A model generated the notes under the pieces. It had not been told where the DNA came from. It saw only the letters and a program-made list of their open reading frames with translations, and made no database searches. 64,000 nt of DNA from an uncultured Candidatus Poseidoniales archaeon. GTDB taxonomy: Archaea > Thermoplasmatota > Poseidoniia > Poseidoniales > Poseidoniaceae. Positions 22,712-49,245 of this stretch are shown in pieces (the stretch's first letter is position 1; each line of letters starts with the position of its first letter). Where the stretch lies: NCBI GenBank assembly GCA_905182185.1, contig CAJJAP010000001.1:11167-75166 (forward strand). The letters are read 5' to 3'. Made by a program: the position numbers and the translations under genes.

Positions 22712-24791
22712 ATGGACACTGAAAATGTTACATTCGCTGACCTCGGCGTGGACCCAAAGGTCGTACGTGTTTTACAGTCCCAGGGCATCCTTTCTCCCTT
22801 TGAAGTACAACTTGCAGCTATACCAGATGGAATGGCTGGAAGGGACATTTGTTGTCGTGCTCCAACAGGGTCTGGTAAGACTCTTGCATTCGGACTTCCG
22901 CTATTGTCAAAGACGACCGAATCAAAACCATTCTGTCCAACTTCTCTGATTCTAACTCCAACTCGTGAACTTGCAGAACAAATTTACAATGTATTAGAAC
23001 CTCTTGCATGGGAACTCAAATTGTACGTACTTGCAGTTTATGGTGGTGTGTCGTACACCAAGCAATTCAAAGCACTCGACCGTGGTGTCGATGTTTTGGT
23101 AGCGTGCCCAGGTCGATTATTGGATTTGATTGATAGAGGAAATGTATCACTTCAAGATGTCAATTGTGTCGTTCTTGACGAAGCGGACAGAATGGCTGAC
23201 ATGGGATTCATGGAACCAGTTTGTAAGATTCTTAATATGTGTAAAAAGGATAGGCAAACCATCCTTTTCAGTGCAACCTTGGATGAAGAAGTTGCAGACT
23301 TGGTTAGAGATTACCAAACAGATCCTGTAACAATTGAAGTTGGACCAAAGGAAGTTTCAATGGAATCAATGCAACATCTCTTTTGGATGATGCCAGGTGC
23401 AAAGAAAGGGCCAGTGAGTGCTGAATTAATTCGAAAAACTGGTCGCGCTATTGTATTCTGCCGAACTCGTGCAGGTGTTGATAGAGTTGGAGATGAATTG
23501 GAGTACGATGGTGTTTCAGTTGAAACATTACATGGTGGATTAAGCCAACATAACAGAGATAGAGCCATGGAACGATTCCAGCACGGAGAAACAATGGCTC
23601 TAGTGGCGACAGATGTAGCTGCTAGAGGTATCGATGTTGCCGGCGTAAATTGTGTAATTCATTATGACCCACCAGAAAATGGTAAGGCCTACAAGCACCG
23701 AAGTGGAAGAACTGCTCGTGCTGGTACATCTGGAGTTGTAGTCTCTCTCGTTCAAAAACCTCAGAAGAGGTCTTATGTCCGAATTCAACAACAAGTTGGA
23801 ATTAGATGTAATTTCGATCCTCCAGAGTTTTCTGATATTCCTGAATTCGAAGTAGAGTTTATCGCACCAAAGGCAAAATCATATGGACGTCAAGGTTCTA
23901 ATTCTAGAAATGATAACGGTGGAAGGCATAACCGCAGCAATAACGACCGAGGTGGAAACCGAGGTGGCTACAGAGGCGGCGGTGGCGGAAGAGATTCTGG
24001 ACGCGGCGGCGGTGGCTACAGAGGCGGCGGCGGCGGAAGAGATTCTGGACGTGGCGGCGGCGGTGGCTACAGAGGCGGCGGCGGTGGAAGAGATTCTGGA
24101 CGCAGCGGCGGTGGCTGGCTATGGTGGCGGCGTGACGGCGGAAGAGATTCAGGACGCAGCAGCGGTGGCGGTGGCTACAATGGCGGCGGTCGAGACGGCG
24201 GAAGAGATTCTGGACGTAGCGGCGGTGGCGGTGGTACGGTGGCGGCGGCGGTGGCTACAGAGGCGGCGGCGGTGGAAGAGATTCAGGACGCAGCGGCGGC
24301 GGGGCTACAAGGCGGCGGCGGAGGAAGAGATTCGGACGTACAATGGCGGCGGTCGAGACGGTGGAAGAGATTCTGGCAATGGAGGATACCGTGGTGGTGA
24401 CAGAAATTCATACCAAGGTCGTGACAGTGGCAGAGATTCTGGCCGTGGTGGAGACAGAGATTCTGGCCGTGGTGGAGACAGAGGCGGAAACCAAAATGAT
24501 AGATCCAATTCCAATCAAGGTGATAGAGCACCTAAACAGGATAATAGAGAGCCTGCTAAAGCAAAACAGGATAAGTCTAGTTCCAACAAGGAATCAAGCA
24601 GTAGTGGCTATCGTGGAGAAGCAAAAGGTAGAACTTACACTCCAACACATTCTGAAAAGAAGGGATTCTTAGGTGGGAGAAGACCACTCACTCGTGATCA
24701 ATTACGCAACAGACCAGAGCACACACGCGAAGGCGGTCGTGGTGGGAAAGTTGCTAGTAAGCGTAACAAGCATGCACAAAAAGATGATTGA
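22712..24791 (+). CDS. DEAD-box RNA helicase with a long C-terminal GGRDSGR/RGG-like repeat tail; the frame is broken several times inside the repeats
   Basis: Contains APTGSGKT, PTRELA, DEADRM, SAT, ARGID and HRSGRTARAG. The tail is spread over ORFs 22712..24400 and 23883..24791, which share the repeat region. The sense reading resumes as YNGGGRDGGRDSGNGGYRGG... and runs to the stop at 24791. Confidence 0.85.
23940..24490 (+). repeat. G-rich coding tandem repeats (GGRDSGR[GS]GGGGY units)
   Basis: The unit ggaagagattctggacg[cgt]...ggcggtggctac recurs. A 53-nt stretch at 24184-24236 matches the reverse complement of 49541-49593 at all but 2 positions (manual comparison). Confidence 0.85.
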
Positions 24792-24792
24792 A

Positions 24793-25443
24793 TCAATCTC
24801 TTTGTAAGTGGATTCTAACAACTCTTGCTTGTCCCTTGTGTAGCGCTGATTCATCGAGAACAGTGCTTGTAATCGCAGTATGAATAATGTTCATTTGGGG
24901 TGCTTTTTCACCAACTAATTCGCCTAATACTTCATCCAAGTCGAATAATAAATCAAGTGATTTCGGACCACCACTATGCAAAGGCATTTGGCTTGTATGA
25001 TAACCTTCCATAACGAAATGGCCACCACTTTTCAGTGAATGCAACATTCTCGGCATGTGGACTTTTCTTATCTCACTGGGTGTATGAAACCATGAACAAG
25101 CGATTAGATCATACGACTGTTGTGGAAATACTCTCAAAGCTAAATCATCAACTTCATAATCGACAGTAACTGCATGTTCTTGTGCTAATAGGTGGCATTT
25201 TTGTTTGCCGACAACCGATAGGTCAAACACTTCGCTATTCCAACCAATTCTCGCAGCCCAAACTGCATTTCGACCCTCGCCATCAGCAGGGAATAGTGCA
25301 CGATTATTAGGGGGTGGGTCGATTTGAGAAACACGTTCACTCAACCAAATATTTGCTTCTTTGCCATATGCATATTCATCTGAAGAAAAGCGCTCATCCC
25401 ACATTTCTCCACCGCTTTTGATTTTATCGTCAGTCATTTTCAC
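24793..25443 (-). CDS. Class I SAM-dependent methyltransferase, substrate unknown
   Basis: Has a Rossmann-type motif I region (ALFPADGEGRNAVWAA) and an acidic motif II (VFDLS). Its size and layout resemble TehB/type-11 methyltransferases. Confidence 0.55.
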   Translation of the reverse strand: MKMTDDKIKSGGEMWDERFSSDEYAYGKEANIWLSERVSQIDPPPNNRALFPADGEGRNAVWAARIGWNSEVFDLSVVGKQKCHLLAQEHAVTVDYEVDDLALRVFPQQSYDLIACSWFHTPSEIRKVHMPRMLHSLKSGGHFVMEGYHTSQMPLHSGGPKSLDLLFDLDEVLGELVGEKAPQMNIIHTAITSTVLDESALHKGQARVVRIHLQRD

Positions 25444-27614
25444 TCCTCCTCTTGTTCAATTTGCTTGGGTGGTGAAAAGATTCCATGGTCTTCAATAATT
25501 TGACCAGAACCTGGCAGAATACCAAGAATATCATCGGTCATCAATCCTGTATTCTTGTAAATCTGATTAGCAAGTTGTTCTTTTTTAGTTAATCCTGGTG
25601 AAAGAATTGCATACCTTTTACAGATATTTTTGATAGTAGCAGGTGTTGCACCCATCAATAATGGAACTCCATTGATTGCGACAATTCCAATGCCGATTCG
25701 AACATCTAAATCCTTGAACCATGTGCGCTGCCCTCTAACAATAAATGCTCCTTTACCAACGAATTCCCCAGTGTTAGCAGTCTTTGAAACTTGAGCAGGC
25801 TTAACCGAATAAACAGTTCCATGTGCCCCTCCTCCTGCCCATGCACGACTCCAACAAAGTGCCATTGTAGCAGCCTCAAGTAATTTATCATCATCAAGAG
25901 CAGAATCCTCTAATTTATCTGCAACGCGAAAAGCAGGGATGTCATCTGGAATATGTGCAGGTTTTTGTTGGTCAACAATAAATCCTTGAGCTGAACGTAA
26001 ACTGCACGAAGGAGCACCATGTATGTCTGCATGTAAGTACAGGTCATTTACTGACAGGTGTCTTTTGACAACGGAATCATTACCTTTGGCATCCTTGCCT
26101 CCAACTAGTAAATGGCCACCGGAAATCATTGACCAGCGATGTGTTTCAAACCAAAACCTCTTGCTACGTTTAATTCGGTTTAACTTCCCAGTTGCTTCCG
26201 CTTTGGTTTCTTTTTTCTGAGCTGTTTTTAATCTGGTAACAGTTTCTTTGAGTGCATCGACTGCACCCTTATTCTTATTCTTCTGTTTTCTTGCAGATGC
26301 AAAATGTCGTTGAGAGTTTTGATGTACTGTTTCATCAAGTGATAATGTTGCTTGTGGGCCATTTGGATGACCATCTTCATCAGGGAGTATAGTGACAAAA
26401 GTCCTCTCAGCAGCATTCACAGAAACAATCCAAGCAATTTCTTTTATTGCCTTTTTTGTCGCTTTCCAACCTTGAACCTCAACAGCCTCATCAACTTGTG
26501 ATAATAATGATTCAATATGAGTCCAATTTTCTTGAATCATATGGCCAAGAGCCTGTTGTTTGTCTATTTTTTCTGAAAAAGAAATCATAGAACTCTCTTG
26601 TTGAACAAGCCTTCTTTGCAATCTCTCAACATCGGTTGAATGACCTCTTCCCGGAGCAGCAATATCCATTTTTTCAGCCTCTCGCCTTGCTAACGCTGCC
26701 GAGTCGTGAGAACCTCTCCAAGCATCGACAGCAGCCCCAAGAGTGTCAAAACGAACCGATACCCTATCAGCATGAGACGGTAGTAAAATCGGCGTTGCTT
26801 CCTCTGCATGTAACTCTAGGAATCTATCACGGATAACGCCCATAATCTGTTTATCTGCTACAGCCTGTAATTCCTCAACAGGAACTTCATCACTTGGCTT
26901 CAGAATTAAGAACCCTGAATTGCTATTTGATAGGTCGTTTAGCAACTCGTGTAATGCAGAATGAACCTTACCAATATCGGCATCTTCTGCCTCCATGTTT
27001 GGTTGATGACCTGCAAGTTGGCAAATAGCATTGGCATGAGTTCCACCGAGGTTTAATTTGCCTCCAAGGGTTGAAACTAGATCTCTATCCGTGTCCTTAA
27101 ATAATTCAGTTAACCCTTGTTCATCGAGTGAAAATGGATTTATCGCAGCGGGAGGGGGGGTATATTCAAAACCCTTTTTGAGAGTTCTTCCTGCATAAGC
27201 CGCATGAGTAAGGGGCTGAATAATAATTCCTTCTTGATCAACCAAAATGATATTTCCATCTCTAAAAACTTCTACGTAAATGTGTCTCGTACCAAATTTA
27301 GTCTCAAAATCAAATGATAATACACGGTCAAAGCCAAGTTGTCTTACTCCGGTGAAGCGTGAATTTTTGAGGTGCTTTCGCAGTAACATAGCGAATGGTG
27401 GTGGCGTCATTGGCATAGGGCGGTCGCGGTTTGAAGTGTAAATTCGTGAACCTCTAACAAAGACTAAATCGAATTGGTCCATTTCTTTAGGATTGATTCG
27501 AAGGACTATTTGCTCATAATGAGGCATGTACGCCTTCTTGACATATGCATTAGTGCATTTGTTCAATTCGTTGGCCATTGCAAATAGGTCAAAACCGCTC
27601 ATCGCCTCCTTCAT
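25440..27614 (-). CDS. NFACT-family protein (archaeal Rqc2/RqcH/FbpA homologue, ribosome quality control)
   Basis: The N-terminal NFACT-N pattern reads MSGFDLFAMANEL...FTGVRQLGFDRVLSFDF...IYVEVFRDGNIILVD. A central coiled coil follows. The C-terminal NFACT-R/DUF814-like block reads GGKDAKGNDSVVKRHL..LYLHADIHGAPS. Confidence 0.8.
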   Translation of the reverse strand: MKEAMSGFDLFAMANELNKCTNAYVKKAYMPHYEQIVLRINPKEMDQFDLVFVRGSRIYTSNRDRPMPMTPPPFAMLLRKHLKNSRFTGVRQLGFDRVLSFDFETKFGTRHIYVEVFRDGNIILVDQEGIIIQPLTHAAYAGRTLKKGFEYTPPPAAINPFSLDEQGLTELFKDTDRDLVSTLGGKLNLGGTHANAICQLAGHQPNMEAEDADIGKVHSALHELLNDLSNSNSGFLILKPSDEVPVEELQAVADKQIMGVIRDRFLELHAEEATPILLPSHADRVSVRFDTLGAAVDAWRGSHDSAALARREAEKMDIAAPGRGHSTDVERLQRRLVQQESSMISFSEKIDKQQALGHMIQENWTHIESLLSQVDEAVEVQGWKATKKAIKEIAWIVSVNAAERTFVTILPDEDGHPNGPQATLSLDETVHQNSQRHFASARKQKNKNKGAVDALKETVTRLKTAQKKETKAEATGKLNRIKRSKRFWFETHRWSMISGGHLLVGGKDAKGNDSVVKRHLSVNDLYLHADIHGAPSCSLRSAQGFIVDQQKPAHIPDDIPAFRVADKLEDSALDDDKLLEAATMALCWSRAWAGGGAHGTVYSVKPAQVSKTANTGEFVGKGAFIVRGQRTWFKDLDVRIGIGIVAINGVPLLMGATPATIKNICKRYAILSPGLTKKEQLANQIYKNTGLMTDDILGILPGSGQIIEDHGIFSPPKQIEQEEE

Positions 27615-27746
27615 GCTCCCGCCTCCATACTTCGCTAGGTGGCTAGGGGTCTTGAACTCTCAGCCCATCATTATCAGTATAGGTCGCAAAATATTGGTTG
27701 AATAACACCGTCATGCCTTGATTAAATTATTTTCAATAGTCTATTT

Positions 27747-29255
27747 TCAAACAATTTTCCAATTGTGATCTTCCTCAACTACCTTTCCATCTCTTTGGTG
27801 AGAGAGCAGATGTGACAGGGTTTGGTCTTGGGCTAGAAGAGGATGTGCATCTGGGCTATCTTGGTATGCAACTACAGAGATTTGAGCAAGTTTATTATTT
27901 CCAGCAGCTACAGCATCAAGCACTCTTTGATGGCGAGCAGCCCTATGTTGAAGGTAATATTTCAGTTTCTTTTCTGGTAGTGGAATTACTGGTCCATGAC
28001 TTGGAAAAATCAAATGTGGTTTCAAATCAATAAGGCGTTGTAATTGCTGTAAATATTGGTCCATATCTCCTTCACTTGGAGGTATCAGGATGGTGCCAAT
28101 ACCCGCTACCATGTCGCCAGCGACTAAACCAGCATCTCCGAGCAAGCATATGTGACCAGGGTGATGACCTGGTGTTTGCAACACCTGCCATTTTTGTTCC
28201 CCGAGTTGCAACATTTCTCCATCATGCAATATGCGTTGGCATGGAATCTGTTCTGATGTTTGTTGACTACCCCAAATTGGTACATCAAATGCTTCTCTTA
28301 ACAAATCAAAGTCACCTAAATGATCACTATGAGGGTGGGTAAATACAATGGCTAGTAAATTACCATTATGCCGTTCAACAGCAACTGCTAAATCCTCCAT
28401 TCCCTCTCGCATTCTGGCAGCAGGGTCAACTAATACGAAGTCACCTTCTGGGTCACCGATAAGGTAGGAGTTAGTGTGATCTGCAGGTGGTAATGTTGCT
28501 GTTTTTACAGGAACGACTTCGACTCCATACGCAAATAAGATTGAACGGCGACCTATCTGTCGTTTTTCCATTTCCTCAGCAGATGAGTCCATATCACCAC
28601 CAAATTGCGCCAGAGTGCGTTTCAATTGCATCATCAGAGTGACAACTGGTGGAGCAATTTTCATTTCGTGCGCCTTCCATTTTAGCAACAACTGATCAGC
28701 GCTTTGCCAAGTGAATTCGACAAATTCAGTTTGTCCTACTATACTTGGTTGCGGAACTTCTTGTGAACTTCCGCCATGAATGTGGAGGAAAGTATTCTCA
28801 AATAACACAGGCCCGAATGGAGGGGTGGTACGTGATGAAATATGACGTATCCCACTTGTATCACATGGAATATTCCCTTGTTTTACCTGTGGCAGCCAGT
28901 TCGCCTTATCTGCAACAACGAGGCTTCTCGCAGCATCATCGACCACGATAATTTTTCCATCAACACAGGCGAAGCCTAGTTCCTCAACAATCTCTCGCAT
29001 AATAGCAGCAAAAGCAGCAGCATTTGGTCCATCTAATTGTTCCAGTTCCTCAACTGCCAACTTATCAACGCGAGATAACCCACCACCAGGAAACGCCCAA
29101 TAACCCGGAAAAGCAGGCATCGACTCGGCCCTTCTACCGAGTAAGACCTCAACTCCATTGGAACCATCACGGGTGATCATCATAGTTGCAGAAGGTCTAA
29201 TTTTACGTGAGACAGAATCCATCTTGACACCCTTAGGAACTTCGCTCATGGTCAA
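27747..29255 (-). CDS. Nudix-like N-terminal domain fused to an MBL-fold metallo-hydrolase
   Basis: The Nudix-box remnant is PGGGL...REIVEELGF, with an insertion. The MBL motifs are THPHSDHLG, HHPGH and GD. Confidence 0.6.
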   Translation of the reverse strand: MTMSEVPKGVKMDSVSRKIRPSATMMITRDGSNGVEVLLGRRAESMPAFPGYWAFPGGGLSRVDKLAVEELEQLDGPNAAAFAAIMREIVEELGFACVDGKIIVVDDAARSLVVADKANWLPQVKQGNIPCDTSGIRHISSRTTPPFGPVLFENTFLHIHGGSSQEVPQPSIVGQTEFVEFTWQSADQLLLKWKAHEMKIAPPVVTLMMQLKRTLAQFGGDMDSSAEEMEKRQIGRRSILFAYGVEVVPVKTATLPPADHTNSYLIGDPEGDFVLVDPAARMREGMEDLAVAVERHNGNLLAIVFTHPHSDHLGDFDLLREAFDVPIWGSQQTSEQIPCQRILHDGEMLQLGEQKWQVLQTPGHHPGHICLLGDAGLVAGDMVAGIGTILIPPSEGDMDQYLQQLQRLIDLKPHLIFPSHGPVIPLPEKKLKYYLQHRAARHQRVLDAVAAGNNKLAQISVVAYQDSPDAHPLLAQDQTLSHLLSHQRDGKVVEEDHNWKIV

Positions 29256-29335
29256 AGCAAAGCACGCCGTCCTTCAATGATTTCCATTAATGGCCTCAAA
29301 GCCAATTTGAAGTGAGAGTAACGCTTGGGCTTGTT

Positions 29336-29527
29336 ATGGCGGATACAATAGAGGAGGAACTAGCCCTTCTTGCAAGAGTTGTAGATGAGGCTGAAAGAAT
29401 GGGTATTGACCCATGGCCAAAGTCCAAGCCACAGAGGCCTTGGGCAAAATATGCAATCGCTTCTTTTATGGTAATAATGATGCTGAGTTGGGTTTCAAAA
29501 ATATTATTTAGATTCATAAACGTCTAG
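29336..29527 (+). CDS. Small tail-anchored membrane protein, function unknown
   Basis: MADTIEEELALLARVVDEAERMGIDPWPKSK... is followed by the TM helix YAIASFMVIMMLSWV. ATG 29336 lies within listed ORF 29312..29527. Confidence 0.4.
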   Translation: MADTIEEELALLARVVDEAERMGIDPWPKSKPQRPWAKYAIASFMVIMMLSWVSKILFRFINV

Positions 29528-29535
29528 TTAAATGG

Positions 29536-29807
29536 TAGCCCCCCTCGGACCTTAAGAATGACCAGCATCAAGCGATTCATTCGCAGGTCTAGCGTGAACT
29601 GAACAAATTGTAGCAATATGACTGTTCACGCGAAGGTGTGGAACTAATGCCTTGAATTGATTGATAACAGATAGCCCCCCTCGGACCTTAAGAATGACCA
29701 GCATCAAGCGATTCATTCGCAGGTCTAGCGTGAACTGAACAAATTGTAGCAATATGACTGTTCACGCGAAGGTGTGGAACTAATGCCTTGAATTGATTGA
29801 TAACAGA
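29536..29807. repeat. Perfect tandem duplication (2 x 136 bp), each unit beginning with the terminal 14 nt of tRNA-Gln
   Basis: Units 29536-29671 and 29672-29807 read identically. Both start with tagcccccctcgga, which is the complement of TCCGAGGGGGGCTA at the 3' end of the adjacent tRNA (29808-29821). Confidence 0.9.
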
Positions 29808-29880
29808 TAGCCCCCCTCGGATTTGAACCGAGGTCGGCGGGATCAGAACCCACCATGATGGACCACTACACTAGGGGACT
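29808..29880 (-). tRNA. tRNA-Gln (CTG), no encoded CCA
   Basis: The reverse complement is AGTCCCC-TA-GTGT-AGTGGTCCA-TCAT-G-GTGGG-TTCTGAT-CCCGC-CGAC-CTCGG-TTCAAAT-CCGAG-GGGGGCT-A. The acceptor, anticodon and T stems pair, and the D arm is typical of archaeal Gln/Glu tRNAs. Confidence 0.85.
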
Positions 29881-29947
29881 ATGCTCCTTCCGATTAGCCA
29901 TCACTTCTTCAATTAAACGGTGTAGATATTAGATTTTTTTATTCTGC

Positions 29948-30837
29948 CTATTCTTTTATCGCTCTTGGAAGAATTGTGAATGTCGTAACCATTTGGATGG
30001 CTTGGCCGTATGTGATGCTACCCTGATACTCTCTGCTATTATCATCTACAACAACACGCAATCTGAATTTACAGGTTTTCTTTGACCTTTTCTTACGATA
30101 ATGTTTGTAAAAATGAACACCAACCTTGTACTTCCCAGGGGGGGGATATTCTCCCACACAATATTCTCAACGGGATTATTACTGACCGGCTTAACGTTCA
30201 TATCAACATCCAATATACCACCACACTCACTTATTTTGTTGTTGAAATATATGCGCTCGCCATCAGGGCAAAATAAATGTAGATCTAAATCGTTATAATC
30301 GTCCCAAGAAAGAGTCACTTGAACAGCACCCGATTTGCCACCTTCTCTCATCAGGCGCTCATCCATGTCATCATCTATCGGAGCCTCAGCGATAGTAATA
30401 CCACTTCCAATCTCCTCTTCCGCAACTAGTACTGAATGTTGTTCCAATCCTTCTTGATTCTCTTCAATCCATTCACCGCGGCCATCTAATTCCATTATTC
30501 GGCGCTGTTCATCATCGGTTTCTTGTTCATCATTTATGTCTTCAATTATGTCGGACAGAATTAATCTTAAATCCACGAAATTTTGATCTCTGTGAGAATC
30601 TCTTTCTAAATAGTCTGAATATTCATCTTCTGATAACTCTGTGGTTTGCCTTGAACGCAATACCATTAGTCCATCTCTTTCAACAGATTCAATTGATTCG
30701 AAACCGCCATATTTTTGATGATGAGCGAGATCAGCTAATCTTTGATGTTTTCTTTTGATTCTCATGTAAATGGAACGTAATACCAGTGATGAGATTAGTA
30801 TTAGGGCAATTCCGCCCGCTATGACTATGCCCTCCAT
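29948..30837 (-). CDS. N-terminally anchored protein with an acidic linker and a C-terminal DUF2135/YfaP-like beta-domain; frame break at a C8 tract
   Basis: ORFs 30046..30837 and 29948..30157 join as ...VENIVWENIPPPGKYKVGVHFYKHY... if the G8/C8 run at 30138-30145 had 9 bases. The block VTLSWDDYNDLDLHLFCPDGERIYFNN..GGILDVDMN resembles DUF2135 (from memory). Confidence 0.5.
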
Positions 30838-30908
30838 AACCAGTATTGTACACTACTCCTTTATTGGAGATTTGGCTACTTTAGGTAAAATAACCGGGTA
30901 ATCCAGCC

Positions 30909-31964
30909 TCAAGATAAGAATGCAGCATTTAATTTATCCAATATTTCTCGACTTGGTCGCAATTCGCTATCAGGAACATCTATTAGAGCAGTTTCAACAA
31001 GGTCTAAGTCTTCTATGAGTGAAGGTTTGCTTCCATCGAAGTAGAGTAATCCAGTGACGTGCTTTGATTCAGTATCAGCAGCGTGCAGCGCACTTAGGGC
31101 GGCAACAGCATTTGTCGGGTCGTGCTCTTCAGAGATTGTTTCCAAACGAATTACAGAGCCATCGTGAAGAGTAATGTCACGGAAATGTCCTTCGGGAACT
31201 TCAACTTCCTTCATCGGTTCACGGTTTGGGATATAATCGGCAATGTGCAAGGTTACATTGTTATCTTTAACATAGCCATAAGACTTCAAAGATTCATCGT
31301 TATTGTTGAATGTAACGCATGGGGAAATAATATCTATCAATGCAAATCCTTTGTGTGACATTGCTGCTTTTATCAATGAATTAAGTTGCTTCTTTGAACC
31401 TGAAAAGGAACGGGCTACGAATGAACATCCAAGATTGATTGCAAGTGCGCACAAATCAATAGGCTGCGTCTGATTCGGAGTACCCTTCTTTTTCTTAGAA
31501 CCGATGTCTGCAGTAGCAGAATATTGGCCCTTGGTCAATCCATAAACTCCATTGTTTTCTAAGATGTATACCATATCCACATTTCGTCTAATTGCATGAA
31601 TTAATTGTCCAATTCCGATAGATGCAGAATCACCGTCTCCTGAAACTCCTAAGTAAAGCAAGTCTTTGTTGACAGCATATGCACCTGTGGTTACAGATGG
31701 CATTCTTCCATGAACAGTGTTGAATCCATGTGATTGTCCAAGATAATATGCAGGGGTCTTGGAAGAGCAACCAATACCAGACATTTTAGCAATACGGTGA
31801 GGTTCAATTCCATTTTCCCACGCGGCTGCAATAATGACATTTGAGATTTGATCGTGACCACAACCAGGACACAGAGAAGAAGGTCCACCGGTGTAGGAAT
31901 CCTTCGGTTCGTTAATCATATTCAATTTTATTACCTTTGCAGGTCTTGTTGGTACTTCACTCAT
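30909..31964 (-). CDS. korB: 2-oxoacid:ferredoxin oxidoreductase, beta (TPP-binding) subunit
   Basis: Contains CPGCGH, GIGCSS and the GDGD..IG TPP motif. It overlaps the alpha subunit gene by 4 nt. Confidence 0.85.
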   Translation of the reverse strand: MSEVPTRPAKVIKLNMINEPKDSYTGGPSSLCPGCGHDQISNVIIAAAWENGIEPHRIAKMSGIGCSSKTPAYYLGQSHGFNTVHGRMPSVTTGAYAVNKDLLYLGVSGDGDSASIGIGQLIHAIRRNVDMVYILENNGVYGLTKGQYSATADIGSKKKKGTPNQTQPIDLCALAINLGCSFVARSFSGSKKQLNSLIKAAMSHKGFALIDIISPCVTFNNNDESLKSYGYVKDNNVTLHIADYIPNREPMKEVEVPEGHFRDITLHDGSVIRLETISEEHDPTNAVAALSALHAADTESKHVTGLLYFDGSKPSLIEDLDLVETALIDVPDSELRPSREILDKLNAAFLS

Positions 31965-33748
31965 TGTTTCACCTCCTCAAGTTTTGCCATAATTAAGTCT
32001 GAATAGACTCTTGCTCGAGGTGGTTGACCATCAGAATAAGCAACAGAATGAACCTTTGTGACCAAATCATTTGGCAACTCCTTTCTTAGAATTCCCCACA
32101 GTTGCCCATCTCTATTGATTTCAAGAACAATAATAGTTTCGTGACGTCTAATGAACTCTCCAACTTGGTTTGATATTGGTAGTGCGCGAATTCGACATTG
32201 ACTGACCTTTAGGCCAGTCGCTTCAAGCATATCGTCAATTTCTTGGATCGTATTTTCCATACTTCCGATATAGATAATTCCAACTTCACATTCAATTTCT
32301 TCTCGCAGGAGTGGTGCAGGAAGAAGTTCTCTTGCACCGTTTATCTTCATCTTTAATCTAGCCATAAGGTCAACGTAGTCCTTTGGTTTTTCAGAATAAA
32401 CTCCCTTGGTGTTGTGTCCAGTTCCTCGATAAAGGACAGGGTCCATTCCCGAGCCAGGTAAAGTACGGTATGGGATTCCATCTCCATCGACATCAAGGTA
32501 ACGCCCGAAGTCTTCAAACGCTTCAAAGACCTCACGATCTCTTACTACCTTTCCTCGGTCCATATCTTGCTCAGGATAAGTAAATCCTTCACAGGCCCAG
32601 CGGTTCATTCCTAAGTCTAGGTCTGATAATCCGAATACAGGGGTTTGGAATCTTTCAGAATAATCCATTGCTCTCCAGCCAAACTCAAAACATTCTTCAA
32701 CGGTCCCTGGAATCAAAACGATATGTTGAGTATCACCATGACTTCCTTCGTAAAGCATTGTAATATCAGATTGTTGAGTACGAGTCGGCAGTCCAGTAGA
32801 TGGACCAACACGATTAACATCCCAGAAAACAGAAGGTACTTCTGCAAAATAAGCCAGTCCAATGAATTCCTGCATTAGAGAAATACCAGGTCCTGAGGTT
32901 GCAGTCATTCCACGACCGCCAGCCCATCCAGCACCGATTACCATACCAGCAGCAGCCAATTCATCTTCAGCTTGAATAATAGCACATGTTGATTCACCTT
33001 CATCATTTGTTCGAAGTTGAGGGACATATTCGATAATTGCTTCTGCAATTCCTGAAGATGGGGTGATTGGGTACCAAGCAAGCATTTGAACTCCACCGAA
33101 ATGGCAACCCAAAGCAGTCGCTTCATTACCATCGATGAAGAATTTTGCAGTATCTTGTTGTCTCTCCTCAACAACATATGGGTCTTCCTTAGAGAGATTT
33201 TCTTTGAAGTAATCACGACCCAATCCGAGTGCAGTGAGATTCAGTCCAATCGCTTTTTCCTTTCCTTTGAATTGCTTGGACAATGCAGATTCTAGTGCAG
33301 ATTGGTCGATGCCAAGTATTTCTGCTAGTATTCCTACATAGATGATATTGGTGACTAACTTAGCTATTTTTGGATTGATTTTGCGTGCCAATGAAGACAT
33401 TGGGACCGGATATGAGATAACATCCTCTCTGTTCATCTCTTTCTTTGCATCTGAATTCCAAATTACTACTGAGCCGGTTTCAAGAGATTCCAAGTCTTCA
33501 TCCCATGTTGCGGGGTTGACCAATACTTGGATGTGAGTTCTGTCGCCTGGTGCTTGATATCCCAAGTCAGAAAGTCTTACGATATACCAAGTTGGTAGCC
33601 CAGAAATATTTGATGGGAACATATTTTTCCCAGAAACAGGAATTCCCATTTCAAATAATGATTGAAGTAGAATTAGGTTCGCACTTTGAGAACCTGTTCC
33701 ATTTGCTGTAGCGATATTTATCGTGAAATCGTTTGCAATAGTTGCCAT
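31961..33748 (-). CDS. korA: 2-oxoacid:ferredoxin oxidoreductase, fused gamma/alpha subunit
   Basis: An N-terminal gamma-like domain (NIATANGTGSQSANLIL) is followed by the alpha domain (YPITPSS, ELAAAGMVIGAGWAGGRGMTATSGPG). Confidence 0.85.
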   Translation of the reverse strand: MATIANDFTINIATANGTGSQSANLILLQSLFEMGIPVSGKNMFPSNISGLPTWYIVRLSDLGYQAPGDRTHIQVLVNPATWDEDLESLETGSVVIWNSDAKKEMNREDVISYPVPMSSLARKINPKIAKLVTNIIYVGILAEILGIDQSALESALSKQFKGKEKAIGLNLTALGLGRDYFKENLSKEDPYVVEERQQDTAKFFIDGNEATALGCHFGGVQMLAWYPITPSSGIAEAIIEYVPQLRTNDEGESTCAIIQAEDELAAAGMVIGAGWAGGRGMTATSGPGISLMQEFIGLAYFAEVPSVFWDVNRVGPSTGLPTRTQQSDITMLYEGSHGDTQHIVLIPGTVEECFEFGWRAMDYSERFQTPVFGLSDLDLGMNRWACEGFTYPEQDMDRGKVVRDREVFEAFEDFGRYLDVDGDGIPYRTLPGSGMDPVLYRGTGHNTKGVYSEKPKDYVDLMARLKMKINGARELLPAPLLREEIECEVGIIYIGSMENTIQEIDDMLEATGLKVSQCRIRALPISNQVGEFIRRHETIIVLEINRDGQLWGILRKELPNDLVTKVHSVAYSDGQPPRARVYSDLIMAKLEEVKQ

Positions 33749-33986
33749 TGTGGGTTGTCCCCTGAGAGTTTAGTGGCGATGAAACTCACTCCTCTTGACA
33801 TTTGGGGTCCGCATACACCCTTTGAACATGTTGGAGGCGCGCTCACATTTTGAGTGCTATTTGAACATACTATTACCAATAAAGAATTCTGTCATAATGT
33901 GATTTTTTAAGTCTCTTTAGGTTTCTGTTGTATGTGGTAATGCTGACGGTTTAGGGGTGATACTCAAAACCGATTAGTATCTGGGA

Positions 33987-35011
33987 TTGAACATGGCCGA
34001 AGACAATATGTCGGAATCATGGCAAAAAGCAGAGAAATTGATCATCAAAGGGAAAGCCGAAGGCGCTCTTCTGGAACTGCGTGAAATCGATGTTAACGGA
34101 ACCCATCCAACAACTCTGCGTATTGCCGGTGAGGCAACTTGGGCAATAGCAAAAAGCGCTCGCAATAAAGGCGGGTACCGCAAGGCAGCATCATTGTTGA
34201 AAGAGTCGGTTAAGAATGCACCAAAGGATAAGAGAGCGAATGCATCTTATAACGAATTATTGAATGAAATGCAAGATTTAGGCTATTCGGAAACATCAAT
34301 GCCTCGTCTACTTAATGATGGAACTCCAACATTAGCAGGAATGGTGGCAATGGGCATGGCATTGGTTTTGGTTCTCGCCGGAATAACAGTTGCAAATACT
34401 GAGCGAACGGTAACCGCAACAGAAGCATATCTAAATGTGACATGGACTGATTCTTCAGGCTTGTTTAATAATGAAGTGATTACAATTAAATTAAATCCTG
34501 ATTCAGCACCTATCCATGTTGAGAACTTTGTTCTAAATGCGGACAATGGGGATTACGATGGAACCAATTTCCACAGAGTTATTGATAATTTCATGATTCA
34601 AGGTGGCGATTTCACCAATGGTGACGGAACCGGTGGTCATGCTGCTAAGTGGTTTGGTTATTGTAATGGACAAGCGCAAGCGAGTTCTTCGATGTGTGCG
34701 GAGACAAGTTGGACCATCCCAGACGAAGCATCAAATGGTTTGAAGCATACAGCAGGAGCACTTTCAATGGCGAAAACAAGTGCTGATAATACCGGTGGTT
34801 CTCAATTCTTCATCGTACCGAGTGATGGTGGTGCTTCTCATCTAAATGGAGTACACACTGTATTTGGCTACGTTACAGATGGCTTGGAACATATAGACTC
34901 AATTTCTAACAGTCCTACTGGGCTCAAGACGTACCAACCAATGCTGTAACATTGGTTAGTGTAACTACCGATTCGACTGAAAATATTCCTTGGTACCGTA
35001 CATACTTCTGA
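33987..35011 (+). CDS. Membrane-anchored cyclophilin-type peptidyl-prolyl isomerase; frame break near 34920
   Basis: Contains FHRVIDNFMIQGGD and GALSMAKTS..GGSQFFI. The listed ORF stops at 34949, but the expected family C-terminus (QDVPTNAVTLVSVTTDS...) continues in another frame to the stop at 35009-35011. One extra G in the ggg at 34920-34922 restores it. Confidence 0.75.
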
Positions 35012-35081
35012 GAGTAATCAATTGATTTGTTGAGCACCTTTGATGGGTGTATTCATAGATGTGTTCCTAATCGGATGCAAT

Positions 35082-37745
35082 ATGGCTATGATTGACACCT
35101 TCAATGCCCGACGAAATCTTTCGGTTGGCGGAGAATATTACTCTCTATCTGGACTCGATGAAAATGGTGTCGATACCAGCGCATTACCATACTCTATTCG
35201 TATTCTATTAGAAGGGGCATTGCGTGGTAATGATGGCTTCTTGATCAGCGAAGATGACATTAGAAATATTGCTGCTTGGACTGCAAATGGCGAGCGAGGA
35301 GAAATACCGTTTAGGCCATCAAGAGTAATTCTTCAAGATTTTACTGGAGTTCCAGCAGTGGTTGATTTGGCTGCACTAAGAGATGCAATGGTTGAGATGG
35401 GCGGAGACCCTGAAAAAGTCAATCCACAAGTTCCAGTTGACCTTGTTATCGACCATTCAGTTCAAGTTGATGTTTCAGGTGCTCATAGTAATGCATTGGA
35501 AATGAATTTAGATATTGAATATCACAGAAATATGGAAAGATACACATTCCTAAAATGGGGTCAACAATCCTTAGCAGATTTCCAAGCAGTACCACCCTCA
35601 AGAGGAATTGTTCACCAAGTGAATTTAGAGTATTTGGCAAGCGTTGCTAGACAAGAAAATGGACTTTGGTTGGCAGATACACTCGTAGGAACCGATTCTC
35701 ATACAACAATGATCAATGGATTAGGAGTTCTTGGTTGGGGTGTTGGCGGAATTGAGGCTGAAGCTGTAATGCTTGGTCAACCAATTTACATGCTAGCACC
35801 AGACGTTGTCGGAGTTCGTTTAACCGGTAAACTAAATCCAGGTGTTACCGCTACCGATATGACTCTTAGAATCGTAGAAATTCTTAGAAAGAAAGGCGTT
35901 GTTGGAAAATTTGTTGAATTCTTTGGCCAAGGTATGACCGCATTATCTCTTGCAGATAGAGCCACAATCGCTAATATGGCTCCAGAATATGGTGCAACCT
36001 GTGGTTTCTTCCCTGTAGATGAAAGAACATTGGAATATTTGCGTTTGACCGGAAGAGAAGAGAGTGCAATAGAAGGCGTTGAAGCGTATTCTAAGGCGCA
36101 GGGACTTTGGTATTCATCTACAGATCCTGAGAAATCATATACTTCAACAGTGGAATTGGACTTGACTACCATTCAGCCAGCACTTGCAGGTCCAAAAAGG
36201 CCTCAAGATAGAGTTGATTTGAGCGCTATGAAGCAACACTTTGAGCATTCATTAACCAACGAATTAGGCCATCATGGTCACGGTTTGGAAACTGAGGAGT
36301 TGTCAAATGGAGCAATGGTTGATTTGGATGGGGAACGATTTGATTTGAACCATGGCGACGTTGTAATCGCGGCTATTACCTCTTGTACCAACACATCAAA
36401 CCCTGGTGTGATGTTGGCTGCGGGCTTACTTGCTAAGAAGGCTCGACAAAAAGGACTTACAGTTAAGCCATGGGTCAAGACTTCACTCGCTCCGGGTTCA
36501 AGAGTTGTTACAGAATACTATCAAGCAGCAGGTTTGCAAGAAGACCTCAATGCCATGGGGTTCAATGTTGTCGGATATGGCTGTACCACCTGTATCGGAA
36601 ACTCCGGTCCACTCGCTCCACCTATTGAAAGTGCAATTGATGAAGCAGGGCTAATAGTGGGTTCTGTAATCTCAGGAAATAGAAATTTTGAAGGCCGAGT
36701 TCATGGTAAAGTAAAGGCTTCATATTTGGCAAGTCCTCCGCTTGTTGTCGCTTATGCAATCGCTGGTACTCTCGAAATTGATATGTCTACAGAGCCACTT
36801 GGATATTCTAGTGATGGGGAGCCAGTGATGCTTTCTGATATTTGGCCAAGCGATGAAGAAATAGCAGAATCGCTTTCTGTTATCACTCCTGAAATGTTCC
36901 GTCAACGATATGCTGATGCAATGAATGAACCAAGATGGGATGGCATACCTTCCGAAGCAAGCCCACTATATCCTTGGCAAGCCGATTCAACATATATCCG
37001 ACTTCCAACATTCTTCAGTGGATTAGATTCCGAACCATCTCCAATACAATCGATTGAAAATGCGCGTGTACTGCTAAAACTTGGCGACTCTATCACCACA
37101 GATCACATCTCTCCGGCAGGCTCATTCCCAGCCGATGGTGCGGCTGGAAAATGGTTGGTTGAACGCGGTATTGAGGCAGGAGATTTCAACTCATTTGGTT
37201 CAAGGCGAGGTAATCATGAAGTAATGATGCGAGGAACATTCGCCAATGTTAGAATTAGAAATCAAATGGCTCCTGGTACGGAAGGTGGATACGCTCTCAA
37301 CCATGAAACAGGTGAGATAACTTCAGTCTATGAGGCAGCACAAACAGCAGGTCCAAAGGTCGTATTAGCAGGTTCGGAATATGGGACTGGTTCAAGTAGA
37401 GATTGGGCTGCTAAAGGGACATATCTGTTGGGGATTAAAGCGGTGATAGCGACCTCTTTTGAACGGATTCACCGTTCTAACTTAGTAGGGATGGGCGTTT
37501 TGCCGATGACCTTTGTGGAAGGGCAATCACACGACTCATTGGGTCTTGATGGTTCTGAATTTTTCAATATTCCAGTTACAGATTCTGTTAAGCCTTTAGA
37601 GGTAATGAAAATCACTGCAACAAAACTGGATGGTACTCAAATTGATTTCGATGCACAAGTTAGATTGGACACACCTGTAGAAGTTGAATATTATCGTAAC
37701 GGTGGCATCTTGCACACTGTATTAAGGCAACTTGCTAAACAATGA
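35082..37745 (+). CDS. acnA: Aconitate hydratase
   Basis: Contains DSHTTMINGLG, CTTCIGNSG, NRNFEGR and SSRDWAAKG blocks. ATG 35082 (MAMIDTF) is preferred over the upstream TTG at 35040. Confidence 0.9.
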   Translation: MAMIDTFNARRNLSVGGEYYSLSGLDENGVDTSALPYSIRILLEGALRGNDGFLISEDDIRNIAAWTANGERGEIPFRPSRVILQDFTGVPAVVDLAALRDAMVEMGGDPEKVNPQVPVDLVIDHSVQVDVSGAHSNALEMNLDIEYHRNMERYTFLKWGQQSLADFQAVPPSRGIVHQVNLEYLASVARQENGLWLADTLVGTDSHTTMINGLGVLGWGVGGIEAEAVMLGQPIYMLAPDVVGVRLTGKLNPGVTATDMTLRIVEILRKKGVVGKFVEFFGQGMTALSLADRATIANMAPEYGATCGFFPVDERTLEYLRLTGREESAIEGVEAYSKAQGLWYSSTDPEKSYTSTVELDLTTIQPALAGPKRPQDRVDLSAMKQHFEHSLTNELGHHGHGLETEELSNGAMVDLDGERFDLNHGDVVIAAITSCTNTSNPGVMLAAGLLAKKARQKGLTVKPWVKTSLAPGSRVVTEYYQAAGLQEDLNAMGFNVVGYGCTTCIGNSGPLAPPIESAIDEAGLIVGSVISGNRNFEGRVHGKVKASYLASPPLVVAYAIAGTLEIDMSTEPLGYSSDGEPVMLSDIWPSDEEIAESLSVITPEMFRQRYADAMNEPRWDGIPSEASPLYPWQADSTYIRLPTFFSGLDSEPSPIQSIENARVLLKLGDSITTDHISPAGSFPADGAAGKWLVERGIEAGDFNSFGSRRGNHEVMMRGTFANVRIRNQMAPGTEGGYALNHETGEITSVYEAAQTAGPKVVLAGSEYGTGSSRDWAAKGTYLLGIKAVIATSFERIHRSNLVGMGVLPMTFVEGQSHDSLGLDGSEFFNIPVTDSVKPLEVMKITATKLDGTQIDFDAQVRLDTPVEVEYYRNGGILHTVLRQLAKQ

Positions 37746-38500
37746 GCCCGCTACAAATTGTAATGATTTACAAAGCACTACCTTCAAGGATGTTGGCGAT
37801 TCACCTTTGGTTGATGGCAGAGCTAAGCGGTCAAGTAAGGTATCGATTCAGGTCGGATGACCATGAGGTTCAGGTTTCCCTAGAAGGCGAAGCTGAATGG
37901 GTCGCTGAAAGAGTAGGGGAACTCGGATTAGAGGGTGTAGGATGGACTATGCCGGTCGGTGAAGCGGTGAAAGCGGTCAATCTCTCGCAAGTTTCTAAAA
38001 GTAATTCAAAAAAGTCAGACGGACGTCAAAAAGTTGTCATTGACGACACTCCTTTAGGCGATAAACCGCTGGATATGGGTCCAACGCCAGACCCTAGCCG
38101 CATCCCAGTTGTTCGCAGGCCAATCGGTGAATTAAACCTTCAAAAAGAGATAGATAAGATCGGAGTAGAAGGCGCTAGAAAACCAGATCCGATTGAATTA
38201 ATGGAGATGCTTGATGATACCGATGAGCCTATGCCGGCTCAAGGGAAAATGAGCGTTGACCCAATGGCAGAAGCTTGGTTAAGAGAACTGATGGAAATAG
38301 TTGTTAGAGAAAATGGTGGAACTGCTCTAAGGACCGAAGACATTGAAGAGGTTGCGAGTTCAAAACTCGGGAATCGCCAAGGAGTCGAACTTGAAGTCTG
38401 GTTGCAGTCTCTTTTCTCAGCAGGAAAGTTGGTCAAAATACATGGCGGTGACGCTGTCGGATGGGGCCCTTCTCCGAGATGGTTAAATGGGCGTATCTGA
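37742..38500 (+). CDS. Hypothetical protein, translationally coupled to acnA
   Basis: An ATGA start/stop overlap links it to acnA. No recognisable motifs. Confidence 0.45.
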   Translation: MSPLQIVMIYKALPSRMLAIHLWLMAELSGQVRYRFRSDDHEVQVSLEGEAEWVAERVGELGLEGVGWTMPVGEAVKAVNLSQVSKSNSKKSDGRQKVVIDDTPLGDKPLDMGPTPDPSRIPVVRRPIGELNLQKEIDKIGVEGARKPDPIELMEMLDDTDEPMPAQGKMSVDPMAEAWLRELMEIVVRENGGTALRTEDIEEVASSKLGNRQGVELEVWLQSLFSAGKLVKIHGGDAVGWGPSPRWLNGRI

Positions 38501-38720
38501 TAAAAATAGTAATGTTTTACTACTTTTCTCGATTAACAAGATATCCATTGGTCATAATCTTAAATTTAGGCGGATTTTTTAACAAAAACTCAACGCTTAT
38601 TATTGGGGCACTGTGGCGGGGGGGGTTTGTCCAAATGGGCCACTGGAGGCCAATTTGGGGTTTTAATTACGAATCTTAAAGGCAACACCATTAAAGTGGA
38701 AGCGACGCTCGCGGTAAGCA

Positions 38721-41700
38721 GTGATGATGATGTCAATCAAAACAGAGCAACTGAAGGCCCAAGTTCGCAGCACTTTCCTAGTGCTGATAATGCTACTTTC
38801 AACCACTGCCGCTTTAGCCACAACTTCGAGCGCTTCAATGAGCCGAAGTTATACAACCGGACGGGACCCCCAAGATGTTGCAATCGGAGATTTCAATTGT
38901 GATGGAGCAAATGATATTGCCATGGCTACTGATGGAGCTCACACGATAACTATCCTGTGGAATGATGGAAATGGTGATTTTTCAGAGCGCCAAGACATTT
39001 GGATTTCAAAGAATGTATCACGAGATGCTGAGTGGGATGAATTTTCTAATGTGCAATTCATAGAAGTTGGAGAGTTTACAGGCGACAACGCCCTTGACAT
39101 CGTAATTTTCCAAAGAAATAATCCATTCAAAACAGATGACAATAATGCACCAGCAGGTGAACCAGGTAACGTTACAATCATCGAAAACCAAGGCTGTAAT
39201 AATCACGACTGGGCCATCGGTGCTAGATTCACTCACTTTTGGGCATGGGATTTAGCAGTTGGTGATGCAGACCAAGATGGTGACGATGATGTTTACGTGC
39301 TTGATTTGCTGACCGATATAGACACGCAAAGAGTCGTCACCTATAGAGGACCAATAACCTCCTCAACTCCTGCAATGGTCACTTCACTCGGATCGGCTAA
39401 AGCTAATTCTTACCGTTCTATGGAAGTTGGAGATTGGGGGGAATCACAGACCGGCTTATCCGGCGCATGTACCGATGACGACATATTTCTCCTGAGGTCT
39501 TCAGGTGTTGATTACAGCACTGGCCAAACAACTAATCCTGGTAACGATGATAACGTGTCAATCGTGCAATTCGACTGTTTGACAAACATATATCCGACGA
39601 CTTATTCATATGGCTCAAGTCAAGTTAATACAAATACAATTAACATGGCAACTACATTTTCTAGTGGTTTTGATATCGGTGATATGGACGGCGACTTAGT
39701 GACTGATACAATCGTTTTGAACGATGGTAATGTAGAAAATGTGACCTATGTGACATCATCCGCAGTAGGAACTTGGTCCACGCCATCACTTGCGTATTTC
39801 GGGCCGTATATTTCGTATGCAGTCTCAGTTGCAGATTTGAATGGTGACAATGAACCAGATTTCGTCAACCCTACCGTTGCATATCAACAAAACACTAGCG
39901 ACTCTGCTGGAGGAACAACCTCTAATTTCTGGCTTAACTTCCCAACAACTGTACAAGTTACACTGTCAAATGGTGCCGGAGGCCACGTAAGTCCTCTATC
40001 ATACGAGGCAGGCCGCAGACCTAGCATGGCTGAGGTAGGCCAACTTGCAGGCGCATCAGGTTCAGCTCCAGATATTGTAGTTGGACACACATCTTACGAC
40101 TTTGGAAATTGGATTGACAACTTAGGATGGGAAGGGCAATACGATTCAATCTCGGTTATTGAAATGGATAATCAAGATCTATCTGTCACCGATTTAGAGA
40201 TTTCACCAGTCGACAGGTTCTTTGGAATCGTTGGTGAAGGAACACGCGACCTCAATGTTACGGTCATCAATACTGGAATGGATACTTTGAACGGACAAAC
40301 TGCTACTTTGGATGTCGAATTAAAGATAGTTGATGAAGCCAATTCAACCAATACTACAGTATATGCAATGGATTGGGACACAGCAGAGAATAAAGCAGGC
40401 TGTGGAACTGGATGTGCTTGGACTTATGAAGAGTATATCGACCAATCAACTCGCTGGCACGAAGAAGTGAATCACTCTGAGTTTGAGAGTGGTAGTGAAA
40501 ACTTCGCAGCCAACCAAAACAATCCTACAGATTTCATGTGGGCTGGTATCTATGATACAAATGCAAGTGGCGACACTTGGACCGGATACGGGCGTAACTG
40601 GGACGATGCTATGACGCTAAACGCAGTAGACCTAACAGGGTCTGACCGCGCATTCATGGGAATTGAAGTATTCCAATCCTTATCTTATGGTGCACTTGGA
40701 GGCGCTGATGCAAATGGCTGGATTATTGGCGATGTCTGGGATGACTTAGCGATTATTGAGGTTGGGAGCATCGAAACCGGTTGGGCAACGATCAACTGTC
40801 CACAAGAGGCTTTGATCAACGCAGCCTGTTCTTCAGGTTCATCAATATGGGGTGGTTATGACAATGACCGCTTAACCAAGCAGGGATTAGGAGGAGTTGC
40901 TGAAGGTAGTCTACAATTATGGAGTATACTATAGCGGAACTCACTACGGTTGGAACAATTTCACAGAAGATGGAGTTGGTGCATTTGACCTAAGTAGTTG
41001 GGCTGGAGAAACAGTTGACATTCGATTTAGATTTAGAACTGGATTTGATGGAAGTATTGCTGATAGCAATGAAAGCAGGTGGTCTGGACTTGACGGATAT
41101 GCAGTCGACAATATCACAATTTGGAAACAAACTACTGCATTCTTAGGTAACCCACAAACACAACAAAGTCAAATTTCATTAACAAATCTTGGACCTGGTG
41201 AAGAATATACGACCTCTTTGTCAGTGAATGTTCTCAATGACACTACATACAGAGTTAGTGCGTCATTGTCAAGCAATGCTTGGGATGAGCAATCACTTAA
41301 TGATGAAATCGTTGGATATTTGACTCCATTCAATCTTTACGACCCAGCGGTTGAAGGAATTGATTACTTCAAACCTGGTGGTTTGTATGCAGAAGGAATC
41401 TTCGACATTGGAGTGACGACAAATAATTGGGGTAATACCTTGGTTGATTTTGATGTTGAAGCAAAGGTATTCACCGCAACTCCTTCAGATATTTACTGTG
41501 GAGTTCCTTCAGAGATTTGTAAAGAATCATTCGAAGGCGGTTCGGAAGGATATCGATATATTGAAAGTAATAATCCTCGAGGAGCTGTATACAATGAAGC
41601 AAGTTGTAATGACAAGATTTTCAATAATAACGCATATTGGTTTGGACATCCATGTGAGACCGCTACTAAAGGATACGGAGATGCATGGGCAAATGAAACA

Positions 41701-45405: not shown

Positions 45406-45500
45406 GTTTTGCCTTGGGCAAATTCCGATCACTGTATTGAGCGTAAGCGATGAATAATCGGGTGCTTATATTCAATTAGTATGGGCTACGGGGACTGCTC

Positions 45501-48117: not shown

Positions 48118-48196
48118 ATTCACTGAAAATAAGAAAGAACATTATGTTTTTATTAGAGTATACTGTGAATGAACTATATCGAATGGATTTGAGAAA

Positions 48197-49243: not shown

Positions 49244-49245
49244 AC

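Follow-up and report, generated by a model that had tools for sequence, protein, structure and literature searches.

Inverted copies of a coding repeat evolve in concert at the ends of a DEAD-box helicase gene and a Gar1 gene in a subclade of Poseidoniales

Concerted evolution of dispersed repeats through gene conversion is well known from rRNA operons, duplicated tuf genes and the Ser-Asp repeat region of the staphylococcal Clf/Sdr genes. Here we describe a comparable case in a 64,000-nucleotide (nt) stretch of DNA (hereafter the window) from an uncultured Candidatus Poseidoniales archaeon (assembly GCA_905182185.1, contig CAJJAP010000001.1). The names that databases give to its closest protein relatives also point to the Poseidoniales (Marine Group II). 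Two arrays of the window, A and B, are inverted copies of one 48-57-nt coding repeat that lie about 25 kb apart; array A belongs to a gene for a DEAD-box RNA helicase and array B to a gene for a putative Gar1 protein (Table 1). As in the rRNA operons, tuf and Clf/Sdr, the copies within a genome are more alike than orthologous copies between lineages. Unlike those systems, the host genes are not paralogous, the array encoding a disordered tail is all that is shared, the copies are inverted and the host is an archaeon. Judged by title and abstract, the papers listed by literature searches included no report of a disordered-tail array homogenised between non-homologous archaeal genes, nor of shared or co-evolving tails in archaea. 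The passages on a helicase in PMC6741140 are about a different one.

Known proteins resemble each of the two hosts in part. The tails of the Pseudomonas aeruginosa helicases RhlE1 and RhlE2 are reported to aid RNA binding and phase separation and to give active chimeras when swapped (PMC11260450), and a 2026 preprint describes condensates of Escherichia coli CsdA that gather ribosome-biogenesis factors at rDNA (10.64898/2026.09.17.752289). The helicase of the window shares with these a DEAD-box core followed by a basic low-complexity tail; unlike theirs, its tail is encoded by a DNA array of nearly perfect tandem units whose sequence recurs in a non-helicase gene, in an archaeal protein known from sequence alone. 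Eukaryotic Gar1 is described as having RGG domains that the archaeal counterpart lacks (PMC8096250). The Gar1 tail of the window resembles the glycine/arginine-rich (GAR) domains of eukaryotic Gar1 and fibrillarin in being a Gly/Arg-rich disordered region on a subunit of the H/ACA ribonucleoprotein (RNP), and as in FUS and TAF15, RanBP2 zinc fingers stand beside a Gly/Arg/Tyr repeat, the fingers matching FUS (6g99) and TAF15 (8ons) by profile. The analogy with GAR-domain proteins and RGG-tailed helicases of eukaryotes, which a preliminary description of this DNA had drawn, is nevertheless loose. The helicase tail would fit a broad definition of RGG regions, with 13-15 RGG, 4-5 di-RGG and 0-1 tri-RGG motifs in the helicases P0123 and P0124. 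The Gar1 tail is almost devoid of RGG: the proteins P0001, P0003 and P0005 have 1-3 RGG, no di-RGG and 22-25 GR, with Asp or Ser after most of the Arg residues, and each unit carries a net charge of only about +1. Under a stricter definition of tri-RGG and di-RGG, reportedly given by Thandapani in 2013, the spacing is 0-4 residues. By its composition, the module would not count as a classical RGG box, and the likeness to eukaryotic proteins implies no shared DNA descent.

An inverted-repeat scan of the window found 27 arm pairs linking both arrays, the best being 55 nt long at 100% identity. The longest exact match of the helicase array elsewhere in the window, on both strands, was 14 nt, as compared with these 55 nt to the Gar1 array. 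The tandem-repeat and inverted-repeat scans confirmed both arrays at the places where the preliminary description had put them, and its claim that the same DNA module is present in both genes was borne out, since BLASTN of 23900-24500 against the reverse complement of 49300-50050 gave gapped matches of 280-321 columns at 84-87% identity. Its figure of 2 differences in 53 positions for one pair of segments has to be corrected: these segments show 39 mismatches in 53 positions when aligned without gaps, and 4 in 53 when the Gar1 segment is shifted by 2 nt (49539-49591). The search for further carriers that it had recommended was run on the assembly that contains the window (G000; 1.55 Mb in 11 contigs, 42% G+C, 63% complete), where BLASTN and a six-frame motif scan located the module at these two loci only, with no third carrier. 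No third carrier was found in five further genomes of the subclade defined below either, all 16 matches falling at the flanks of the same two genes. An exact 26-mer occurred at 2 loci in one species genome of the genome collection, and viral contigs gave 0 matches.

Table 1 Positions of the shared arrays, their host genes and related features in the window
Feature	Positions	Strand	Remarks
DEAD-box RNA helicase gene, encoding the core, the repeat tail and a conserved extension at the C-terminus	22712..24791	+	PF00270, PF00271
Array A, seven units	23963..24365	+	encodes GGYRGGGGGRDSGRGGG and GGYNGGGRDGGRDSGRSSGG
55-nt exact stretch (I9)	24180..24234	+	identical to reverse complement of 49598-49652
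Helicase-specific degenerate RDSGR/GGDR repeats (exit from array)	24366..24490	+	
Helicase C-terminal extension, conserved (…GYRGEAKGRTYTPTHSEKKGFLGGRRP…KHAQKDD)	24491..24791	+	
Interval between both genes, ~24.5 kb; a crossover between the arrays would invert it	24792..49245	.	orientation as in all relatives
Putative Gar1 gene, encoding a Gar1 domain, three RanBP2 zinc fingers, the repeat tail and a conserved peptide at the C-terminus	49246..50930	-	
Gar1 C-terminal peptide, conserved (…EFRRSKGKKDGHAHNRAP…)	49246..49386	-	
Array B: five 48-nt units (GGYGGGGGRDSGRSGG), then six 55-61-nt units (GGYGGGRDGGRDSGRSGGG)	49387..50000	-	
Unit B7, helicase-type unit (SS…GGY, extra GGC, GAC-GGC-GGA) within the Gar1 array	49630..49690	-	

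The module is common to a narrow subclade of one Poseidoniales genus only, comprising 8 of the 72 species genomes sampled (G000, G106, G139, G141, G147, G148 and G149, and G125 with its Gar1 gene only). GGRDSGR units occur in helicases of at least 90% core identity (P0121-P0151) and in Gar1 proteins of at least 80% (P0001-P0006 and P0008). More distant Poseidoniales helicases have GGGRSGGGGYRGG or GGGNR units instead, and more distant Gar1 proteins DDGGRPPRRDD or DDRRGGDRRGG. Three genomes of the same genus served as outgroup controls; the longest exact match between helicase and Gar1 tails within each was 9 nt in G012, 10 nt in G023 and 13 nt in G168. Since outgroup tails share so little, the sharing of the module is a derived state of the subclade. 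The gene arrangement is older than this sharing, both genes lying tail to tail on one contig, about 23-36 kb apart, in G000 and 13 other genomes of the genus. As to the original donor of the array, the repeat types point to the helicase as the likelier one: GGYRGGG-type units are already present in the helicase tails of the outgroups, whose Gar1 tails are devoid of tyrosine.

Comparison of the subclade genomes indicated that the two arrays do not evolve separately. Within single genomes, the longest stretch that the helicase array shared exactly with the Gar1 array was 55 nt in G000, 87 nt in G139 and 53 nt in G147, and 28 nt in G141, whose helicase array contains 170 N. Between genomes, such matches were 12-46 nt for helicase against Gar1 arrays, 17-41 nt among helicase arrays and 17-53 nt among Gar1 arrays. 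For each of the 15 lineage I and 11 lineage III Gar1 units, some helicase unit from the same lineage was closer than every Gar1 unit from the other one, the mean edit distance being 3.9 to the own-lineage helicase unit versus 9.4 and 8.9 to the other-lineage Gar1 units. Three synonymous positions followed the same division: in lineage I, Arg-Asp is encoded by CGA-GAC, DSG is followed by CGC or CGT, and GGT-GGC-TAY is used, in both genes alike, and in lineage III the two genes have CGT-GAT, CGA and GGA-GGC-TAC. The units adjoining the unique exits from the arrays carry the same lineage-specific synonymous states, so the sharing of these states is not due to mis-assignment of inner units. Because the units cluster and the synonymous states covary by lineage, DNA passed between the two loci after the lineages split, and the arrays evolve in concert within the subclade. 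These observations point to recent or repeated exchange, in agreement with the preliminary description, which had proposed recent exchange or gene conversion of the repeat. As to the mechanism, which we infer from the sequences, gene conversion between the inverted arrays is the simplest option and the most likely one. The 55-nt identity and unit B7 of the Gar1 array, which overlaps it, are suggestive of a conversion tract; unit B7 may be the best candidate for a recent one, or else an error of the long-read consensus.

Our proposal is as follows. One coding minisatellite with 48-57-nt units is present in inverted copies at the 3' ends of two unrelated RNA-biogenesis genes, those for the DEAD-box helicase and for the H/ACA RNP subunit Gar1 fused to three RanBP2 zinc fingers, and the tail that it encodes is disordered, with much Gly, Arg, Asp, Ser and Tyr. 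Gene conversion, by homologous recombination of the two inverted arrays without crossover, would keep the tails alike, whereas a crossover would invert the interval and exchange the two conserved C-terminal peptides, its products probably being removed by selection. By analogy with known families only, the tails may be generic, interchangeable disordered regions for RNA binding and self-association, and would add unspecific RNA binding and self-association to the folded parts. Taken as a whole, namely a shared coding minisatellite homogenised by gene conversion in the subclade, with frame breaks (see below) that are assembly errors, this account is in our judgement a probable one.

Several points weigh against this proposal. 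No conversion event was seen directly. The contrast between the lineages rests on one split (I versus III) and thus on few independent events. The pools of the distance test were unequal, and the comparison of 47 lineage I helicase units with 11 lineage III Gar1 units favours the finding of near helicase units. The 87-nt match of G139 lies at two contig ends, and its length may equal the word length of the assembler and is a lower bound. Gar1 arrays were available from just 5 genomes and one chimeric contig, and that of G000 itself carries errors. Among seven species genomes of the subclade, 5 of 6 contigs on the helicase side and 5 of 7 on the Gar1 side end in or just before the arrays, and inner units may be mis-assigned because short-read assemblies collapse or break the arrays. 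Finally, matched tails are dispensable in this genus, as is evident from the outgroups.

Since long inverted repeats may also recombine by crossover, the preliminary description had suggested that the intervening 25 kb could invert. No fixed inversion was found. Every resolved junction of the species genomes was parental (G141 on both sides, with an N gap on that of the helicase; G125, likewise with an N gap; and G012, G023 and G168), and the pieces found by DNA search in the other subclade genomes were the expected inner flanks. The 23 metagenome contigs of the subclade compared at the junctions comprised 17 parental contigs, 5 ending in the array and 1 chimeric contig (L026), so that 17 of the 18 resolved contigs were parental, including all 14 with Ga identifiers. 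An invertible segment is expected to occur in both orientations with both swapped junctions, and the single chimeric contig against 17 parental ones does not amount to that. Nevertheless, six database proteins (P0133, P0139, P0252, P0254, P0255 and P0257) join a helicase core via the array to a Gar1 C-terminus, as natural crossovers that swap the C-terminal peptides of helicase and Gar1 would produce. They span at least 3 helicase subtypes, each with the matching Gar1 C-terminal subtype, and L026 has the predicted order of thiolase, helicase, array, Gar1 C-terminus and tetratricopeptide repeat (TPR) gene on the same strand. All six proteins, however, come from a single source (ENA assemblies), the coverage of L026 is 3.6, and a wrong assembly path through shared words yields the same contig as a real inversion. 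The reciprocal form, Gar1 with the helicase C-terminus, was absent among the 120 Gar1 relatives of near length listed, and a search for reciprocal chimeras of >545 aa gave 4 weak zinc-finger matches and no Gar1 relative, although this blank is weak evidence. Rare inversion is possible but unproven, and we consider it improbable that the interval is truly invertible.

A broader version of the same idea seems improbable to a like degree. Here, the inverted arrays would be a natural recombination switch, the 25 kb would be inverted in part of the population, with the helicase and Gar1 each bearing the C-terminal peptide of the other, the chimeras would be real alleles, and the tails would be identical for the sake of a shared RNA-processing condensate, an archaeal nucleolus-like body. 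Since the outgroups manage well with tails that differ, we think it likelier that the sharing arose by accident, is tolerated and is maintained by recombination than that it is required. A common partner or compartment, as suggested in the preliminary description, and co-localisation of the two proteins via the shared tail are ideas only, if testable ones.

The proposal of gene conversion was also weighed against a single ancient transfer of the array followed by independent evolution without further exchange. The two-part layout that both arrays share, with short units followed by longer RDGGRDSGR units, could be explained in this way. The transfer would, however, require parallel synonymous changes at three positions in both genes of each lineage, and a chance grouping by lineage of 26 out of 26 units. 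In three flanking genes, lineages I and III have equal codon usage (e.g. GAT:GAC of 66:30 vs 65-67:27-28), so that no shift in codon usage accompanied such changes. We regard this explanation as unlikely, and somewhat more so than inversion.

In the assembly of the window, both genes are frame-broken inside their arrays; the helicase gene enters the array in one frame and encodes its conserved C-terminus in another. When the window was aligned with L020, a near-identical contig (98.4% identity over 10.8 kb), 31 of the 33 gap positions of the 10.8-kb alignment fell at 24115-24345, inside the array, many of them being single-base gaps. The repeats are thus the seat of the frame errors, as had been supposed. 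L020 encodes an intact helicase of 702 aa, other near-identical helicase relatives are intact (643-692 aa), and the Gar1 relative P0001 is intact with 451 aa. Relatives conserve the peptides that follow both arrays, which requires that the frames be maintained as a rule. The breaks are probably residual assembly errors confined to the shared repeat, without pseudogenisation, and indels limited to a repeat that occurs twice would fit an unpolished long-read consensus. The units of array A are 40-74 nt long as assembled, as against 48-63 nt for true units, and units B2, B6 and B7 of array B have inserted letters or a length that is not a multiple of three.

These many single-base indels are what one would also expect if reads of one locus had been placed at the other, or if the genes were real pseudogenes in this strain. 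Besides, unit B7 resembles a helicase unit, and its extra letter at 49653 is omitted by contigs in each of 4 public runs, although these contigs may originate from the helicase locus. The k-mer contigs of these runs end at the edges of the Gar1 array (49416 on one side and 49950-49981 on the other) and are uninformative on orientation, array length and the locus of a unit; 49893-49939 is almost without cover in the 4 runs, a gap from which nothing is concluded. The preliminary description had itself named an artefactual repeat in one of the genes as the case that would overturn it, and this case fails, as in independent assemblies the repeat of either gene is bounded by unique sequence on each side. 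Seventeen independent helicase contigs have the module between unique flanks, as do the Gar1 contig of G141 and, across an N gap, that of G125, and six complete Gar1 proteins carry it. The array matches of the five further subclade genomes, all at the flanks of the same two genes, likewise argue against an artefact, and the conserved C-terminal peptides behind both arrays argue against pseudogenes. Read misplacement may explain details inside the arrays of this window; as an explanation of the whole, artefact or pseudogenisation is very unlikely. Convergence, whereby selection would have produced the same peptide from DNA of separate origin, would suit the Gly/Arg-rich nature of both tails, which other Poseidoniales helicases have as well, yet it is scarcely credible given the exact matches of 53-87 nt within genomes versus 9-13 nt in outgroups, the use of GGC for 43 of 87 Gly codons in the array versus 3 of 32 in the helicase core, and the synonymous states shared between the genes, for which selection on the peptide cannot account.

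A frame switch was also seen outside the two genes. A Gly-rich, G+C-rich C-terminal stretch at ~61,000-61,700 of contig G000:C7 of the assembly switches reading frame; it lies behind a transmembrane helix, in a membrane protein whose N-terminal repeats are rich in Thr, Asn, Gly and Asp. It would seem that this assembly is generally prone to frame errors where repeats are G+C-rich. The Gly/Arg-rich stretch on this contig was considered as a third carrier of the module and rejected as part of an unrelated membrane protein.

The helicase assignment is firm at the domain level, with 154.5 bits for PF00270 (cut-off 26) and 106 bits for PF00271 (cut-off 23.5), and the translation contains VLDEADRM. 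The closest solved chains are Hera (4kbf, the best, E 2.3e-75), CshA (5ivl) and DbpA (7pli). The protein could not be placed in a named bacterial subfamily (CshA, DbpA, SrmB or RhlE), every NCBIfam equivalog scoring far under its cut-off (CshA, 327 vs 646). Tandem Repeats Finder reported the helicase array at 23963-24251 with a period of 48-51, and a weaker match to the Gar1 array (I25, 24343-24386; 44 nt, 89%) extends into the first 21 nt of the exit repeats. The helicase tail encoded by L020 has 148 residues (59% Gly, 16% Arg, 11% Ser, 8% Asp and 6% Tyr) with a net charge of +11, and the G+C content of the tail is 68% as compared with 43% for the core. The C-terminal extension is kept in P0121-P0151, and a shorter form (YRGEARGQTYKPSK…) is found in more distant relatives.

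The zinc fingers of the Gar1 protein, which are of the RanBP2 type with the pattern W-x-C-x2-C…C-x2-C, were detected in 3 stretches by PF00641 (72.5 bits, cut-off 27), and their PDB matches include ZNF265, FUS and ZRANB2. The Gar1 domain itself is weak by sequence: the Pfam profile PF04410 scored the window protein at 18 bits, under the cut-off of 29.3, and such sub-threshold matches were seen in bacterial control genomes too. Of 33 N-terminal domains from across the order, however, 27 matched PF04410 (E up to 0.01), with no other family matched, and a profile built from the 33 had Gar1 as all top five chains in the PDB (best E 9.5e-4). This N-domain profile was required for the finding, as a full-length profile gave zinc-finger matches alone. 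An AlphaFold model (AF2) of the domain reached a predicted local distance difference test (pLDDT) score of 89.3, and the top Foldseek matches were archaeal Gar1 chains (2ey4_D, 2ey4_C and 2hvy_B; template modelling score to target 0.81-0.85, root-mean-square deviation 1.5-1.9), followed by eukaryotic GAR1. The profile and the model thus support a predicted six-stranded barrel fold of Gar1. This N-domain was found in 60 of 61 sampled genomes of the order.

Tandem Repeats Finder gave 11.3 copies with a period of 57 for the Gar1 array (49387-49992), as against about 3-7 units in intact database relatives, and helicases identical or nearly so in the core vary from 643 to 692 aa. Either array lengths from short-read assemblies are unreliable, or the lengths are truly polymorphic. 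The peptides behind the arrays, …KGKxPGHAHNRPP… in Gar1 and …YRGEA(K/R)GxTYxP…KKGF… in the helicase, are both kept well beyond the subclade, and GHAHNR was found in 47 of the 120 listed Gar1 relatives, many of the rest being truncated. These peptides resemble docking motifs carried at the tip of a flexible tether.

Disordered Gly/Arg tails are commonly regarded as drifting, gene-specific appendages, and here such a tail is homogeneous in two non-homologous genes across 25 kb. The locus can be read as a natural tail-swap experiment, which indicates that the tails are exchangeable between a helicase and an H/ACA RNP subunit, and it provides a workable system in which to ask whether archaeal proteins co-localise because their tails are identical. 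In practical terms, short-read assemblies of this very abundant marine group are broken or wrongly joined at the arrays, long-read assemblies retain frame errors there, and calls that are truncated, chimeric or falsely pseudogenised have to be expected when either gene is annotated.

A gene for a methyltransferase-like protein of the S-adenosylmethionine (SAM)-dependent type (216 aa, 24793-25443, minus strand) lies tail to tail with the helicase gene. It was found at that place in 17 of 17 resolved subclade contigs, and was missing from it, without exception, in the 39 outgroup contigs extending to the next gene (NFACT), as well as in G012, G023 and G168. Its arrival coincides with the clade that shares the tail module, though a functional link is purely conjectural. 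An arginine methyltransferase acting on the tails was considered and rejected: Slr1183, a methyltransferase-like protein with no function given in its entry, is the best PDB relative, and no NCBIfam family was matched.

Two further repeats of the window lie apart from these genes. A perfect tandem duplication at 29536-29821 (136-nt unit, 2.1 copies, 100% matches) overlaps the end of tRNA-Gln (29806-29881) and could be an integration scar or an assembly duplication. An imperfect coding repeat of the CAACAG type, with periods of 12 to 42 nt, is located at 12625-12807.

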